From a virus (Duplodnaviria > Caudoviricetes), in IMG/VR virus record IMGVR_UViG_3300025103_000123, positions 1 through 27,595 of that record: a stretch of 27,595 bases of DNA; one strand, 5' to 3'. The position numbers and the translations under genes are program-made. The notes under the pieces are model-generated. The model was given only the letters and a program-made list of their open reading frames with translations, was not told where the DNA came from and did no database searches. Below are positions 4,032 to 13,566 of the stretch, piece by piece. How positions within the stretch are numbered: the first letter of the stretch is position 1; every line of letters begins with the position of its first letter.

Positions 4032-4051
4032 TAATCTTGAAAGGATTACAA

Positions 4052-5122
4052 ATGACAACAGCACAAACACATGTAATGACAGTCCCACAAATCACCGATA
4101 GGCTAACAGCGTTAGCTGATTTTCAGCAGAGTTGTGTCGATATGGTAGTACCATCTCATTCAATCACCGCTCAGGTGGGGCAAATTGGAGAGGCTTATGA
4201 GCCTCTTATCAATGTAAATCTAGGCATCGGAGATGCCTCGCAGTTCTTGGTTCACATACAGGACCATGCACATAATCAAATCTTCCAAACTGGTACTGAT
4301 ATCGGTCTCCACTATGGGAGAAAGCTGCTTACAGCACCAGACTTATGGGCTACCAATGTGAATCATTGGTTAAGACAGAAAGACGAAGACACTTCGTATC
4401 TCTTAAGAACCAGAAAAGATTTCTTACGATCTTTTCTGAGTTCTCGATACAAGATCGTAAACAATTACGATGTAGCGTTAACGACGCTACAAAAAGCGAC
4501 TACAGTAGGAGCTTTTCCACACCGATTTGATGTATCTGATACTCACATGAGGCTCACATACTTAATGCCAAATCGAACCGTTGACTTGAATGACGGGGAC
4601 ACACACACATTCGGATTCAGAGTAAGCAACTCTGAGGTAGGCATGGGTGCTGTAGATGTGAAGCCATTCTTGTTTCGTTGGGTTTGTACCAATGGTTTAA
4701 TCATGGGTACTAAGGAAGTTAAACAGGGTGCTATGCACAAAGTACATAGAGGCTCCGACTTACCGTTAGGTCAGTTGTCTAGTCGTACAATCCTAAAGCA
4801 AGCAGAAGTAATTCTCAGCGAAGCTGAAGATGCCATTGAAGGTTGCCTTAGTGATGAGATGTTTAACACATGGAAGCGACAGCTTGAGGCTGCTAATGAA
4901 ACAGCTTTAGCTGACGAGCCAGTCAAAATTCTAAAAAGAACTAAGTTCTTTACGGAAGCTGAGTCTACCAACATCTTGTATGAGTTAGCACAGGCGCAGC
5001 AAACAGTATTCGGTATGGTGCAGTCGATGACAGCTACAGCCCGTAACATGCATAGCGACAGGCGGCATGAGGTTGAGACTTTCGCTGGAAAGTATCTCAA
5101 CGAGTTAGTGCCAGTTCGATAA
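4052..5122 (+). CDS. DUF932/DUF945-family phage/plasmid protein
   Basis: Hallmark motif NSEVG...PFLFRWVCTNGLI and FLSSRYKIVNN; start at ATG 4052 after GAAAGGATT. Confidence 0.8.
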   Translation: MTTAQTHVMTVPQITDRLTALADFQQSCVDMVVPSHSITAQVGQIGEAYEPLINVNLGIGDASQFLVHIQDHAHNQIFQTGTDIGLHYGRKLLTAPDLWATNVNHWLRQKDEDTSYLLRTRKDFLRSFLSSRYKIVNNYDVALTTLQKATTVGAFPHRFDVSDTHMRLTYLMPNRTVDLNDGDTHTFGFRVSNSEVGMGAVDVKPFLFRWVCTNGLIMGTKEVKQGAMHKVHRGSDLPLGQLSSRTILKQAEVILSEAEDAIEGCLSDEMFNTWKRQLEAANETALADEPVKILKRTKFFTEAESTNILYELAQAQQTVFGMVQSMTATARNMHSDRRHEVETFAGKYLNELVPVR

Positions 5123-9220: not shown

Positions 9221-9637
9221 ATGGGATACCACAAGAATAAAGAAGTCGATAAAGAATCTGAGTTTGTGCCAAAGCGCAAAAAGATTAATCGGAATAACCG
9301 AAGGAGAGGAAAGGAGTATGAGCGTAGAGCCGCAGCCATCGTGGGAGGGAAACGAAACCTCGACAAATCCCGACCGCACACAGATGTCGAAACGGTGGAT
9401 ACAGTGTACGAGATTAAGTCAACTCAACAATCAGTACCCAACTGGTTGGAGGGGGCATACAAGCAGCTCGCACTGGCGGCAAAAGAATCGGGGAAGGTAG
9501 CAGGGGGAGTCATCAAGGTCTGGACTAGCGGAGCTAAGTCTCGGTTCTTTTTGATTACAGAAATCACAGATACACAGAAAGGATTATGTGATGGCAACGA
9601 ACGGAGTGGGTCTGGAGACCCTGAGATCCCTAGTTAG
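9221..9637 (+). CDS. PD-(D/E)XK nuclease, Holliday-junction-resolvase-like
   Basis: RRGKEYERR...DVET...YEIKS pattern; GGGAG RBS precedes ATG 9221. Confidence 0.65.
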   Translation: MGYHKNKEVDKESEFVPKRKKINRNNRRRGKEYERRAAAIVGGKRNLDKSRPHTDVETVDTVYEIKSTQQSVPNWLEGAYKQLALAAKESGKVAGGVIKVWTSGAKSRFFLITEITDTQKGLCDGNERSGSGDPEIPS

Positions 9638-10115
9638 AGGGATACTGAATGAGCGAGATGAGGTGTATGCACCTGACCTTGCTAAAGAATTAATGGCTAC
9701 TCATGGTGATACAGACTGGTGGACATCTCTTAAAGATGATGTGTTCGACAATGCTGTATACAGCGAAGTAGTAAAAGTGATAGGCGCACAACGTAGAGCA
9801 GGACAGAAAACTGTGTACGGTGACAGGGCTATCACTGCAAACAAGATGGTAGACCGCATAGAAAAGATGCGCACCTCTCGTATGGGTGGCATGGAATGGA
9901 TTGGGGATAGGTACAAACGCATTAGTGAAATGACTAAGGCCGATGTCTATTCAGCAGCAGAGTTACGACGAGAACGTGGTGACCTACACAGTAGGTATGC
10001 AATGTTCTGGGAAGCTCTCGCAAGGAAGATGGATGATTCACAAGTAGTATCTGATATTGCTAGTGAAGAAGACCTCGACGCACTAAACGAATTAGTCACA
10101 GGAAAGGAAGACTAA
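9588..10115 (+). CDS. Hypothetical helical protein directly upstream of the Cas7-like gene
   Basis: 175-aa ORF with GAAAGGATT RBS; 4-nt gap to the next gene. Confidence 0.75.
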   Translation: MMATNGVGLETLRSLVRGILNERDEVYAPDLAKELMATHGDTDWWTSLKDDVFDNAVYSEVVKVIGAQRRAGQKTVYGDRAITANKMVDRIEKMRTSRMGGMEWIGDRYKRISEMTKADVYSAAELRRERGDLHSRYAMFWEALARKMDDSQVVSDIASEEDLDALNELVTGKED

Positions 10116-10119
10116 AACA

Positions 10120-10959
10120 ATGGCAGGTATATTCGCGAAGAAGGCAAACATTTGGAACCACTACAAGGTAACTATTTCATTACGTGAAAAGCTCATGGGT
10201 GGTGTACCAAAAGACCCGAAGATTATTGAGGGTTGGTTGAAAACAAAAATGGGAACTTCCAATGAGGAAGAAACCAAACAACAGCTGTATAACACATTGC
10301 TTGAGCTAGGCTATGACCTAGCTAAGCGTGAGGAATACGAAGATGAGAAGGGATTAGAGCGACTCATTGACATGCAGAACGATGCATCAAGTGACCTCGC
10401 TGCCGTCAAGAATACAAACGGGTTCAAGTTTGATGAGCGTGGTTTGTACATAGAAGGGCGACAACTAAAAGCAGCACTCAAAGAATCTACAAACATTCTA
10501 TGGGGTGGTGTACGTACTGGTCCTACGAAGAAAGGATTCAAGAGCTTTATCTCAGAACGCCTGATGGTCATAGAGGACAAGGTGTATCTAGGGATACAAG
10601 AACCTGATGGTATCGAGACTGTGATAGGTCACGTTACTGGACCACAAGGTCCACGTAGTACATTAGGCTACTCGGAGTATGCGTATCGACCAACCTTAAC
10701 ATTCCACATTAAAGAGTTGAAAGTACTTCAGACTGGACAAAAGTTAAACGATAAGGGTGGACAACCTGCGTTAACACTTGACCAATACGGAGAACTGCTG
10801 ACTTGTATGGAAGAACAGGGCATCGGAGCTATGCGCTCTATGCAACATGGTCGCTTTGATACGATGGCACTTGAGCCAGTAAGCATAGACGATGTACCAG
10901 AGACATCTGGTATCGTTGCCGAAGCAGAGAAGGTGGTGCTCGAAGCAGCTAAGTCCTAA
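10120..10959 (+). CDS. Stand-alone Cas7-group RAMP (RRM-fold) protein
   Basis: N-terminal strand YKVTISLREKLMGG, RAMP-like LYIEGRQLKAALKE (compare PxIPGSSLKGxxR), and C-terminal Gly-rich loop GIGAMRSMQHGRF (compare GxGxxRSxGxGrf). Confidence 0.8.
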   Translation: MAGIFAKKANIWNHYKVTISLREKLMGGVPKDPKIIEGWLKTKMGTSNEEETKQQLYNTLLELGYDLAKREEYEDEKGLERLIDMQNDASSDLAAVKNTNGFKFDERGLYIEGRQLKAALKESTNILWGGVRTGPTKKGFKSFISERLMVIEDKVYLGIQEPDGIETVIGHVTGPQGPRSTLGYSEYAYRPTLTFHIKELKVLQTGQKLNDKGGQPALTLDQYGELLTCMEEQGIGAMRSMQHGRFDTMALEPVSIDDVPETSGIVAEAEKVVLEAAKS

Positions 10960-10963
10960 CATA

Positions 10964-10992
10964 ATGGGGAGGGGGCATACCCCCCTCTCCAT
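10964..10992 (+). other. GC-rich hairpin between the Cas7-like stop and the array
   Basis: ATGGGGAGGGGG-CATAC-CCCCCTCTCCAT forms 12 bp with one G-U pair and has no U-tract. Confidence 0.8.
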
Positions 10993-10993
10993 A

Positions 10994-11438
10994 CCGACAA
11001 AACACTACATAACTTGACTGCGCAGAACTACACATAACGACAAAACGCTACCCGCCGTCACTCAACTAACCGACAGAACGCAACGCGCCGACATTCATCT
11101 AAACTCTACACGCCGACGGAACGAGACCGCACCACACACTCAACGGCACAGTACTGGTCGACAGGACGGAACCAGACAGCACGAAACGGTATTCCCCTAA
11201 TCACCACCTACCGACTATTCGGTACGCGTTCTCACGGGTCAGAACATATTGACGAAACCAAACAAAACGGAACTAGCCTCTCCGACTATCCGACCCCTGC
11301 CCTCACGGAACATTACTCATCGACATTACTCACCGTCACCTGTCGGATCATTTCGACACTCCAATGCGAGACACGTCCTGTCCATACCATACCTACCGAC
11401 CTTACACTCCCCATCGCCTCCTTCCATCCCGACAATAC
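10994..11438 (+). ncRNA. Putative guide-RNA array: 11 full units plus 1 partial unit of YCGAC-(NNNAC)n-NNN
   Basis: Unit starts are 10994, 11037, 11070, 11113, 11158, 11211, 11249, 11282, 11320, 11353, 11396 and 11429. By hand count 66 of 69 internal pentamers end in C and the other 3 end in T. The RNA role and strand are inferred. Confidence 0.8.
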
Positions 11439-11469
11439 AGGATAAAATATGTACAGAAAGGATATACAT

Positions 11470-12351
11470 ATGAAGGTAACAAACAGGCTGAATTTACCAC
11501 AGCCAATAGTAGAAGTACTAGCATCAGATAACTACTCGAAGGGTAGTGCTGACTTTAGTGCAACAGAACTCATAGATTCACCTCGTGTGAAGCAGCTTAC
11601 AAAGCGACACTATGAGGACATCACAGTAGACTGTGCTGATTTGCTCTATCAGTTTGATGGCAAGGCAGTGCATTCATTACTGGAACAAGCCGAAGTCTCA
11701 GAAGACGTAGGCTTGATTGAGAAACGCCTTGAAGTACAGGTGGGTACGTACACTATCTCAGGGGCTATCGACTACTACGATGTGAAGCGCGGAGTCATAC
11801 AAGACTACAAGCGTGTGTCCACATGGGAAGTAGTCATGGGTATCAAGGAAGAACGAGAGCAGCAACTCAACATCTATGCTCACCTAGCTAGAGAGAATGG
11901 TTGGGCAGTTAATGGGCTAGAGATTGTATATCTGTTCCGTGACTGGTCTGAAGCCAGAGCTACTCGTGAGAAAGATTACCCACAGGACAGGGCGCAGCGT
12001 GTAGACATACCACTGTGGTCAGCATCAAAAGCTCAGGAGTATTTAGAATGGCGTGTCAATCTACATGCTCAAGCATCTGAAGAATCTGATACCAATCTAC
12101 CTCTATGCCTACCACATGAGAGATGGGAAGAACCCACTACCTATGCGGTAATGAAACAAGGACGCAAGAGTGCAGTACGCGCGACAGATGAGAAGGGGGA
12201 TAAGTTTCTCTCTCAGGAAGCAGCTACTACATGGATGAACTTGAATGTAAAAACTCGTTCAGACCATCATGTAGAGACTCGCATAGGTGAGCCACGCAGA
12301 TGTCTCAAGTACTGTAACGTAGCTTCGTTCTGTAATCAATGGAGTGATTGA
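11470..12351 (+). CDS. Cas4-like PD-(D/E)XK exonuclease
   Basis: IEKRL..ISGAID..IQDYK..QLNIY motifs and C-terminal C-x3-C-x5-C; start at ATG 11470 after GAAAGGA. Confidence 0.85.
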   Translation: MKVTNRLNLPQPIVEVLASDNYSKGSADFSATELIDSPRVKQLTKRHYEDITVDCADLLYQFDGKAVHSLLEQAEVSEDVGLIEKRLEVQVGTYTISGAIDYYDVKRGVIQDYKRVSTWEVVMGIKEEREQQLNIYAHLARENGWAVNGLEIVYLFRDWSEARATREKDYPQDRAQRVDIPLWSASKAQEYLEWRVNLHAQASEESDTNLPLCLPHERWEEPTTYAVMKQGRKSAVRATDEKGDKFLSQEAATTWMNLNVKTRSDHHVETRIGEPRRCLKYCNVASFCNQWSD

Positions 12352-12477
12352 CTGTGAGAGGCAGGTAAACATTTGACTATCGCGGTGGCGATACCTCTCA
12401 CACCCAACCAGAAAGGATTGCAAGTAGTGGTGTAAAAGGCAACCACACTTAACAACTAGTTCTAATATAGCAGGTTT

Positions 12478-12550
12478 TTAGTGGAGGGGGGAATGGGTGG
12501 AGACCAACCCCCTCCACTAAGCACTGAAGACAGGCTAGAGGGTAGCCTGT
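12478..12550. terminator. Hairpins at the convergence of the two transcription arms
   Basis: 13-bp stem TTAGTGGAGGGGG/CCCCCTCCACTAA (12478-12520) and 8-bp stem ACAGGCTA/TAGCCTGT (12530-12550); no clear U-tracts. Confidence 0.5.
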
Positions 12551-12569
12551 AAACATAATAAACTATGTG

Positions 12570-12668
12570 TTACTTTTTTGCTTTAGCTTTCTTGGGTTTA
12601 GGTGCATCATACACAGCAGGTACACCTACCGCACTTGCTTTCTTGCCGTTCTTTTCGATACTAGCCAT
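12570..12668 (-). CDS. 32-aa Lys-rich peptide (MASIEKNGKK...KKAKAKK)
   Basis: Translated by hand; TAATG-coupled to the holin with an AGGAG RBS. Confidence 0.55.
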   Translation of the reverse strand: MASIEKNGKKASAVGVPAVYDAPKPKKAKAKK

Positions 12669-12928
12669 TACTTCTTCTCCTTTTTCATAAATCGACCTGT
12701 CTTTGGGTCGCGCTTTAATGTTACTAGACTAGCAGAATCATCTCCCACTAGCTTCTGAGCTACACCTGACTTAACAACACTAGCAAAAGCACTGACTACT
12801 ACTGTAGCTATCAGAGCCATAGCATCCATGTCTATATCAGCGATGCTCATACCTGCCGTCACCCCCACCGCAGCTTGCACTGCGGTTGACGCGGCACGTT
12901 CCAAAATATCCCTATATTCTTCGTTCAT
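12668..12928 (-). CDS. Holin (r1t-like)
   Basis: LERAASTAVQA motif, hydrophobic helices, basic C-terminus, and position next to the endolysin. Confidence 0.65.
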   Translation of the reverse strand: MNEEYRDILERAASTAVQAAVGVTAGMSIADIDMDAMALIATVVVSAFASVVKSGVAQKLVGDDSASLVTLKRDPKTGRFMKKEKK

Positions 12929-13566
12929 TAGTTCTCCATATCATCTACTAGCCCCATTGCAGAATCAAACGCATCCTTTAACGCGCTTTGAGCAGCATCT
13001 ATCTGATCCATAGATGTCTGTACTTGATCCATTAAGGCTAATTGCTGTTTATTAACATCGCCTGTAGGCGGTTCCCCTAGAAACTTAAAGGCATCGTTCA
13101 GCCCTTTAGACCTAGAGAAGTACGGGTTATCTGCTACCGTACAGCCCCAATGTAAATGGGGTCCAGTTGATTGCCCTGTAGAGCCAATCTCTCCTATTTG
13201 TTGTCCGACACTGACGGATTCAGAGCGGCGGACACTCGGCGCGGCATTGAAATGAGCGTATAAAGTGTACCCAATAAGACCACCAGTGCTGTCATTGTGA
13301 CGCAGGAAAACAGAGTTACCAAAGATAGCCGCCACATTTTTCCTCCACGCGACTGTTTCTTCAGTCGTGAATACATCATTAACTACTCCATCCATAGGTG
13401 CGTACACAGGTGTTCCGATAGGAGCAGCAATGTCATTGCCCGAATGCCCCTTACCTGAACTTAGTTCAGGTCTTAAAACACCGTAGAAACTTGATACAGT
13501 TCCGCTTACAGGAAAGCCAGAGTACGTTAATCCATCTAAAGTTCCTGCGAAATTTAGTCTTGCCAT
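12928..13566 (-). CDS. M23 peptidase endolysin
   Basis: HSGND (HxxxD), TLYAH and STGPHLH (HxH) motifs. Confidence 0.9.
   Translation of the reverse strand: MARLNFAGTLDGLTYSGFPVSGTVSSFYGVLRPELSSGKGHSGNDIAAPIGTPVYAPMDGVVNDVFTTEETVAWRKNVAAIFGNSVFLRHNDSTGGLIGYTLYAHFNAAPSVRRSESVSVGQQIGEIGSTGQSTGPHLHWGCTVADNPYFSRSKGLNDAFKFLGEPPTGDVNKQQLALMDQVQTSMDQIDAAQSALKDAFDSAMGLVDDMEN

Follow-up and report, generated by a model that had tools for sequence, protein, structure and literature searches.

The window, that is, the whole stretch of viral DNA analyzed here (27,595 nt; IMG/VR record IMGVR_UViG_3300025103_000123), is a phage contig that encodes a major head protein, a helicase/primase, and M23 peptidase/endolysin-like proteins. 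An array of pentamers lies beside a gene for a predicted RAMP protein that resembles the effector of VIPR, in which GGY/NN repeats guide a RAMP filament to DNA, with two bases pairing and one target base being skipped (bioRxiv 10.64898/2026.04.26.720920). The features of the locus are as follows:

9588..10115 (+), ORF of 175 aa immediately 5' of the RAMP gene, probably an accessory (vap-like) gene; phrog_4604 (unknown function)
10120..10959 (+), RAMP (Cas7/Csm3-fold) protein of 279 aa, with helical insert, thumb, and G-loop in the predicted model; Vipr-like effector
10964..10992 (+), 12-bp hairpin between gene and array, likely a processing or terminator element
10994..11433 (+), array of 11 guide units, each (NNN-H-C)m, set off from one another by a 3-nt GAC phase shift; the + strand is the likely RNA
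10999..11036 (+), unit 1: coding strand of a putative ribokinase gene 0.9–1.4 kb from tRNA-Met
11042..11069 (+), unit 2: tRNA-Met(CAT), D-stem to anticodon loop
11075..11112 (+), unit 3: D-stem and anticodon arm of a tRNA of uncertain isoacceptor type
11118..11157 (+), unit 4: 45 nt with a 2-nt slip; tRNA-Ala(GGC), D-stem to anticodon
11163..11210 (+), unit 5: tRNA-Arg(CCT), spanning the D-loop and the anticodon arm
11216..11248 (+), unit 6: antisense to a tRNA-Arg 3' end, continuing beyond CCA into the flank
11254..11428 (+), units 7–11: no target found; units 8 and 10 common to distant phages
11449..12351 (+), exonuclease gene, phrog_2139 (E 7e-50) and phrog_1706 (E 4e-5), weakly Cas4-like

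The array starts 34 nt past the 279-aa ORF. The hairpin between them folds at −23.3 kcal/mol on the + strand (z −3.8), with one G.U pair, and at −21.1 kcal/mol on the − strand (z −2.5); judged by eye, hairpins occur on the same side in many related arrays, and also 5' of the SUSP1 repeats. A second long G/C hairpin (12476–12520), again with no U-tract, lies between the converging early and late gene blocks. Relatives of the 175-aa ORF are found directly 5' of the RAMP gene in five of 26 loci; the ORF has no BLASTP similarity to SUSP1 vap1, and its neighbors in the ESM Atlas are unnamed viral clusters. The exonuclease is probably an ordinary neighbor, and adjoins the array in one of 26 loci, the 97% relative. 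Among the early genes is one for a DUF932 protein (4037–5122; E 2.5e-6; phrog_1362). A promoter scan found one promoter against 1.1 expected, which is the chance level.

Array grammar and related arrays

The array units are 43, 33, 43, 45, 53, 38, 33, 38, 33, 43, and 33 nt long, and the delimiters are CCGAC (seven times), TCGAC (three times), ACGAC, and TTGAC; both series reproduce exactly the hand parse of an earlier note made from the DNA letters alone. The quantization of lengths at 8+5n described there is borne out by 10 of 11 spacings being 3 mod 5, and is better expressed as 5m+3, a unit being m pentamers plus GAC. The earlier pentamer counts (69 in all, position 5 being C in 66 and position 4 being A in 45) are recovered by adding to the 62 full pentamers outside unit 4 the four in-phase pentamers of that unit (66/63/42) and the three that follow its re-phasing. 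Over the 62 pentamers outside unit 4, positions 1–3 are free, as had been claimed (information of 0.02, 0.02, and 0.04 bits), and positions 4 and 5 carry 0.52 and 1.72 bits, respectively. Position 5 is C in 59, T in three, and a purine in none; position 4 is A in 38, C in 11, T in 11, and G in two. In a comparison with shuffled sequences, the grammar parse of the array scored 78, compared with −4.2 ± 5.7 (maximum 21) for 2000 dinucleotide shuffles; the best other 440-nt segment of the contig without array overlap scored −22. Of the delimiter word CGAC and the phase reset, by which the note had marked the boundaries, the phase reset stands, but the word does not define a boundary by itself, since CGAC also occurs in phase inside units (11088 and 11290); the boundary is therefore the word together with a 3-nt phase shift.

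An array is present, upstream or downstream of the RAMP gene, in 25 of the 26 sequences parsed (the window and 25 loci), using a parser that had no shuffled null and counting locus L039 (score 25.5) as having no array; near-duplicate or truncated loci (L001–L003, L007, L008, L011, L012, L021, L027, L030–L032, and L040) were left out of this parse. The C-rich strand is the gene-sense strand in 24/25 arrays, locus L038 (2055–2846) being the sole one with the array, located upstream, on the strand opposite the RAMP gene. In the four closest arrays, 10/11, 21/23, 7/8, and 17/24 unit lengths are 3 mod 5, with less regularity further out, and position 5 is a pyrimidine in 447/450 cases in the near clade. 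The array of L009 (the same as L004; 3857–4718), where the protein is 97% identical, has about twice as many units, few of them in common with the window, which suggests very fast guide turnover. The near-identical viral contigs L001–L003 have a 3-nt difference from the window at 11336–11338, affecting positions 2–4 of one pentamer of unit 9. The same three pentamers precede the last delimiter in 11396–11433 and in the last units of L004 and L006, as if the distal end were a fixed cap and not a guide.

Targets of the decoded units

When positions 1–3 of successive pentamers are joined gap-free, the resulting sequences are near-exact matches to chromosomal DNA of Dehalococcoidia (Chloroflexota), on both strands; because both DNA strands are matched, the target is DNA for at least some guides. 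A search with unit 2 matched 13 of 185,579 genomes, with about 17 chance matches expected. Five of these are Dehalococcoidia/Chloroflexota genomes matched at 18/18, in every case inside the tRNA-Met(CAT) gene, and the other 8/13 matches are not in tRNA. We infer that SAR202 is the label for the Dehalococcoidia group of these genomes. These host-like genomes (G001–G005) were picked for the unit 2 target, and the real host is not among them; thus, the tRNA-Met matches are circular, and the other matches are not. At E < 0.02, 8/61 units match in G002 (0.54 Mb) and 7/61 in G001 (1.80 Mb), compared with 0 and 1 for shuffled units; the 61 are the distinct units of four arrays, and the DNA covered was G002 except for about 1.06 Mb and G001 except for 0.1 Mb.

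Unit 1 matches the ribokinase gene at 22/23 in metagenome contig L235 (19 of the letters being the search pattern) and at 20/23 in G005, and its homologue in locus L005 matches at 25/29. L235 also carries the tRNA-Met target, 1.4 kb from the ribokinase match. The other two of the three metagenome matches for unit 1 are not ribokinase and were rejected as chance. A unit of L004 matches a gene for a putative SDR at 20/20; the names ribokinase and SDR are provisional, coming from our motif reading of the translations. Unit 3 matches three tRNAs equally well, at 19/23: a second CAT tRNA, Arg(TCT), and Lys(CTT). For unit 4, the in-phase L004 homologue matches tRNA-Ala(GGC) at 17/17, and the window copy matches over the first five triplets and then slips; an antisense tRNA-Ala guide present in three relatives matches a displaced half of the gene at 17/17 and the intact gene at 16/17. 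Unit 5 matches tRNA-Arg(CCT) at 27/29, with one gap. At 11188–11192 in this unit, an extra target base falls where the scaffold C is T, an arrangement that is kept in L004, as if the non-standard scaffold accommodated a one-base bulge. Unit 6 matches Arg(GCG), and also its displaced 3' half, at 18/20; to Arg(CCT) it matches at 14/14 for positions 1–2 and at 3/6 for position 3.

Units 7–11 gave no target, a single 16/17 match of unit 9 being at the level of shuffles, and no self-target above 17/29 was found in the phage's own genome. There was no exact match to unit 5 in 185,579 genomes, and none to unit 6 within one mismatch in 99 genomes of the order. Viral scans with unit 5 (two-base rule), unit 8, and the tRNA-Met 3' end gave 0 matches each, and 0/326 segments from GC-rich relatives match the tRNA set. 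At the peptide level, the decoded units are too short for a search to discriminate, with the exception of the ribokinase guide. Two candidate readings were discarded: an integrase motif in one unit proved to be antisense tRNA-Ala, and for a J-domain in unit 8 the whole support was one 18/23 match. In G004, 0.7 kb downstream of tRNA-Met (L081:2246), unit 2 of L004 matches the start of an island gene at 14/14 on two bases and 17/20 overall; this is about chance for 59 units, and falls in the same hot spot.

The proposal of the earlier note that each array unit is one guide is well supported: the units have separate host targets, whole units are common to phages with RAMP proteins 46–49% identical, and strain exchange joints (11069, 11074, 11210, 11218, and 11282) fall at or near delimiters. 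The guide idea of that note thus holds, and its reading of the delimiter as a mark of RNA processing is a candidate; the VIPR system, the partner gene, and the targets had no place in it. By analogy with SUSP1 VIPR structures, one protein subunit would be expected per pentamer, giving 5–10 per guide (excerpt of bioRxiv 10.64898/2026.04.26.720927). A decayed microsatellite (already disfavored in the note), or a DNA array that binds protein and does not act as a guide, is barely conceivable: in line with such an origin, TRF sees a weak 33-nt duplication only, but matches of decoded units to host genes reach 20/20, the RAMP gene and array occur together in 25/26 sequences, and units are exchanged as modules.

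The RAMP protein, the RNA strand, and the third base

The RAMP protein matches no Pfam family at E ≤ 0.1 and no PHROG family, and sequence comparison with the PDB gave only a weak match to the Csm4 G-loop (E 0.29). Its AlphaFold model (pLDDT 88; 119-sequence alignment) has a predicted RRM core, thumb, G-loop, and helical bundle, and its best structural matches are to Csm3, Cmr, and type VII Cas7 (Foldseek E 1e-6; VIA-align Z 12.2, rmsd 3.8, 163 aligned). A model of the SUSP1 family has the same order of elements, helical insert included, both models being predicted; hhalign of the RAMP family with the SUSP1 family gave a weak match (probability 36.7, pairwise E 3.6e-4, 136 columns including the G-loop). 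A tblastn search of 50,697 phage records found one Microcystis phage and did not find SUSP1. Microcystis phage Mae-JY09 (L236, 37713–38459) has a 46% identical protein encoded at the end of its linear record. The RAMP profile matches 1447 clusters at 50% identity, and has no match in 99 genomes of the host-like order.

The G-loop G-D-W-R of the SUSP1 family is aligned to G-A-L/M-R here, with SUSP1 D177-W178-R179 aligned to A237-M238-R239. The D177 column is D in 84/95 members of the SUSP1 family and A in 110/119 here; the W178 column is W/Y in the SUSP1 family and L in 97/119 here; and in the R179 column, R is kept (118/119 here). H17 (H in 88/95 of the SUSP1 family) maps by eye to G27/G28, where G occurs in 117–118/119. 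In SUSP1 Vipr, G1 is read by H17 and D177, G2 is read by R138 and W178, and Y3 lies in a purine-excluding pocket with R179 (excerpt of bioRxiv 10.64898/2026.04.26.720927). Judged from these alignments, both G1-reading residues of SUSP1 Vipr are lost here.

The RNA is probably the gene-sense (C-rich) strand. In SUSP1, the repeats run in gene sense and a hairpin immediately precedes them; 24/25 arrays are co-oriented with the gene, and three abut its ribosome-binding site. On this strand, the pyrimidine of position 5 fits the Y3 pocket, of which the R is kept, and the free base falls in the G1 slot with the lost readers; the G.U pair of the hairpin is also on the + strand, and the Evo-PIN motifs include GAC/NN and CAC/NN (excerpt of bioRxiv 10.64898/2026.10.21.760802). 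In favor of the G-rich strand, this reads as a degenerate GGY/NN in which every unit would start with GGU, it fits the repeats YNNNG/NNNNG (bioRxiv 10.64898/2026.04.26.720920), and the mismatch types are C>T and A>G in six and T>C and G>A in two of 14. Folding of the array flanks on both strands gave no decision between the two, and no RNA run carrying the locus was found.

In another reading, the guide is the G-rich strand and the system targets RNA, pairing with tRNAs and mRNAs and shielding or cutting them as Csm3 does. The best structural matches are type III and type VII Cas7 proteins, most guides would be antisense to RNA on the G-rich strand, and SUSP1 VIPR can pair with RNA in vitro (excerpt of bioRxiv 10.64898/2026.04.26.720927). 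Against this, unit 6 and the antisense Ala guide have the opposite polarity, and unit 6 passes CCA into flanking DNA. Structured, modified tRNAs are also poor pairing partners, and we regard RNA targeting as highly improbable.

The third base of the pentamer matches the target. A target step of 3 beats steps of 2, 4, and 5 when two bases are used (13 vs. 3, 7, and 4), and it is also best when three bases are used (22 vs. 13 and 9). In the nine accepted pairs, which were chosen with all three bases, positions 1, 2, and 3 match at 64/68, 62/68, and 55/59, respectively. A search on positions 1–2 alone gave 13 matches: five distinct unit–site pairs, at four tRNA/SDR sites, match at 25/28 at position 3, and the other six two-base matches do so at 9/39, which is chance (29/101 for shuffled units). 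In comparisons with distant phages (proteins 46–49% identical), positions 1–5 differ in 0, 1, 2, 13, and 1 of 40 pentamers drawn from eight hand-picked shared units in non-independent pairs; for these hand-picked, non-independent pairs, the difference in drift between positions 3 and 4 has a Fisher p of 0.003. Automatic pairing on positions 1–2 gives differences of 1, 3, 15, 25, and 4 of 81 for positions 1–5, with 8/15 of the position 3 differences coming from two pairs that probably have different targets; automatic pairing on positions 2–3 gives 2, 1, 3, 16, and 4 of 65. Array variants between close strains number 2, 1, 3, and 5 at positions 1, 2, 3, and 4 (3/11 at position 3). Position 3 favors G/C in the GC-rich relatives, and may therefore stay scaffold there. 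For the ribokinase target, codon wobble falls on position 2 and not on the skip position.

Because two G1 readers are lost at the slot of the free third base, this base could pair with the target base that SUSP1 VIPR skips, a possibility that we consider evenly poised. The alternative is ordinary VIPR chemistry, in which two bases pair and the third is flipped out; the third match would then be a relic of guide copying from the target in steps of three bases, like the flipped sixth base of class 1 crRNAs, which still matches, and so a trace of the acquisition process with no new pairing code. This would agree with the target step of 3 nt, as in VIPR, with unit 6 being perfect on Arg(CCT) by two bases only, with the somewhat greater variability of position 3 than of positions 1–2 among close strains, and with the presence in the model of the thumb and helical insert, which hold the skip base in SUSP1 (excerpt of bioRxiv 10.64898/2026.04.26.720927). 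However, position 3 is conserved in distant phages where position 4 drifts, the ribokinase guide is not wobble-aligned, and the G1 readers are lost; we rate a relic of copying as somewhat short of an even prospect.

Integration sites and comparison with known systems

In the host-like DNA examined, 5/41 tRNA types, namely Ala(GGC), Arg(CCT), Arg(GCG), Arg(TCT), and His(GTG), have displaced 3' halves that start at positions 29–39 (anticodon arm); this count leaves aside a 5' piece of Arg(CCT) and a Val copy at the end of a contig. Three of the four secure tRNA targets have such halves (p 0.0036). Partial tRNA copies are a hallmark of tRNA-gene integration, and tycheposons use Ala(GGC), Arg(TCT), and one Met(CAT) (excerpt of bioRxiv 10.1101/2020.12.28.424599). 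For tRNA-Met, no displaced half was found in the host-like DNA examined; the DNA downstream of this gene differs among six loci, two of them with tandem 12-nt repeats, and the ribokinase gene borders the Met hot spot, with transcription running towards that hot spot. Neither the ribokinase target nor the SDR target is an att site. Inspection of the islands by eye revealed no integrase, and neither an integrase nor a satellite was recovered. A CC(T/A)T-N7-AAGG-like motif occurs 15–35 nt after CCA in 14/41 tRNA types, including 4/4 targets (p 0.01; host tRNA loci L054–L123); because it was defined after the data had been seen, the motif is kept only as a lead. Tandem 10–12-nt repeats lie behind some copies of this short palindromic motif, and strains differ in its presence or absence at Lys(TTT) and Arg(GCG); the motif probably marks integrative elements of this lineage.

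As to purpose, we give occlusion of att sites roughly equal chances of being right or wrong; it would be the simplest extension of satellite blocking by SUSP1, with guides covering the att sequence itself. The main rival is host silencing, by which transcription roadblocks on tRNA genes, ribokinase, and SDR would shut off the host or steer its metabolism, the link to integration sites being incidental or arising from a stop to read-through into islands. VIPR is known to silence transcription (bioRxiv 10.64898/2026.04.26.720920), most targets here lie on the coding strand, enzymes make up two of them, and tRNA-Met and ribokinase are both transcribed towards one variable interval. On the other hand, there is no tRNA gene within the window, so the phage would depend on host tRNAs, and its codon use for Ala, Arg, Ile, and Lys is only modestly unlike that of the host; moreover, the best fit of the Ala guide is to the displaced half, which has no promoter, and the targets are enriched for att-bearing tRNAs. 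Host silencing is rather unlikely in our judgment, although by no means negligible.

Our preferred account, towards which we lean with some reserve, is that the locus encodes a divergent VIPR, with 11 guide units beside a Cas7-fold gene and triplets that spell gap-free host DNA, whose filament sits on tRNA integration sites and blocks rival elements. Each unit would yield one guide RNA, with one protein subunit holding each pentamer. The filament would bind double-stranded DNA at tRNA genes serving as integration sites and, once bound, block the excision or insertion of rival mobile elements. In the + register, the invariant C would occupy the pyrimidine pocket, position 4 a relaxed G2 slot, and the free third base the G1 slot. 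Read on either strand, the delimiter would amount to two scaffolds back to back without variable bases, and may break the 5-nt filament register, exposing the junction to cutting.

VIPR and non-GGY pentamer arrays are already in print. Relative to the VIPR texts, host tRNA genes at integration hot spots would be a new target class: the word tRNA is absent from the supplement of bioRxiv 10.64898/2026.04.26.720920 and from bioRxiv 10.64898/2026.10.15.759431, and no statement of a third base matching the target was found in excerpts of the VIPR preprints. The analysis also provides a decoding rule for non-GGY arrays, and such arrays could assign hosts to uncultured phages (here, Dehalococcoidia). 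VIPR has been proposed as the ancestor of class 1 CRISPR, and the excerpts of the VIPR preprints leave open how a skip code could become a contiguous code and how guides are written. Because the skipped base is matched and conserved here, and the residues that fix it in SUSP1 are lost, both questions are directly testable with one 279-aa protein and 33–53-nt guides. A broader scenario, which we offer tentatively and with more doubt than conviction, is that a VIPR lineage of 1447 clusters gave up the G1 pocket and pairs three of five guide bases with a gap-free target, as a living intermediate between the VIPR skip code and the contiguous class 1 code; a Chloroflexota phage would use it to park filaments on tRNA att sites, pinning down satellites and defence islands; register breaks would separate its guides, which would be exchanged as modules, and the exact triplet copies of host DNA would be the footprint of templated guide writing.

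As in VIPR, a phage-encoded, stand-alone RAMP protein with a helical insert is accompanied by one putative accessory gene and an adjoining 5-nt repeat array, there are 3 target nt per repeat, both DNA strands are targeted, and there is no self-target. The phage locus is likewise minimal, without a CRISPR array or cas operon (22 ORFs scanned; the exonuclease was the only weakly Cas4-like one). VIPR has alternative repeats (NNNGG, YNNNG, and NNNNG) and ‘staggered’ arrays, in which the end of one vrRNA is the start of the next (bioRxiv 10.64898/2026.04.26.720920); the reverse strand here is a degenerate G-D-N that fits YNNNG/NNNNG. The gene-sense scaffold, however, is N-H-C (two-base H-C) here and GGY in VIPR, the third target base is matched here (see the counts for accepted pairs and for the two-base search) and every third base is left unmatched in VIPR, and the G-loop is G-A-L/M-R instead of G-D-W-R. 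Targets also differ, being host tRNA genes, att-like halves, and core genes here, and coding sequence of rival phages or satellites there; furthermore, one guide here (ribokinase) is not wobble-aligned. Type II VIPR has 9–16 repeats and a structured 3' tail per vrRNA, whereas there are 5–10 pentamers and no tail between units here. Unlike in hammerhead-interspersed VIPR arrays, the units abut and leave no room for a ribozyme; Rfam found nothing in window positions 10000–13000 at E ≤ 5, nor in 20 related loci at gathering score.

Evo-PIN/COMPASS reports 21 period-5 clusters of non-canonical arrays, which lie next to Vipr-like folds, have GAC/NN and CAC/NN among their motifs, and may include this clade; in the excerpt, units are modeled as three fixed and two free bases, with no delimiter, guide boundaries, or targets given (bioRxiv 10.64898/2026.10.21.760802). 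SUSP1 VIPR stops satellite excision by silencing a recombinase gene, and the purpose proposed here would also be to stop the excision of a resident element; its guide lies at wobble-skipping positions of the recombinase gene, whereas the guides here lie on the tRNA att sequence, and the only guides against host DNA in that system are satellite decoys directed at REP elements (excerpt of bioRxiv 10.64898/2026.10.15.759431). Tycheposons are marine tRNA-integrating elements, some of them PICI-like, known from Prochlorococcus and other groups (excerpt of bioRxiv 10.1101/2020.12.28.424599); G001 and G002 have partial tRNA copies as in tycheposon-type islands, a sequence hallmark of putative elements at these Chloroflexota sites.

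With the class 1 Cas7 backbones (Csm3, Cmr, and type VII Cas7), the protein shares its fold (Z 10–12, predicted model), and the gap-free target is also shared. In contrast to class 1 CRISPR-Cas, the window has no direct-repeat/spacer array or multi-gene cas operon, and scaffold bases are interleaved after every three guide bases. The system works like VIPR but is not type II by scaffold, skip, or tail, and it is likely a member of the VIPR family.
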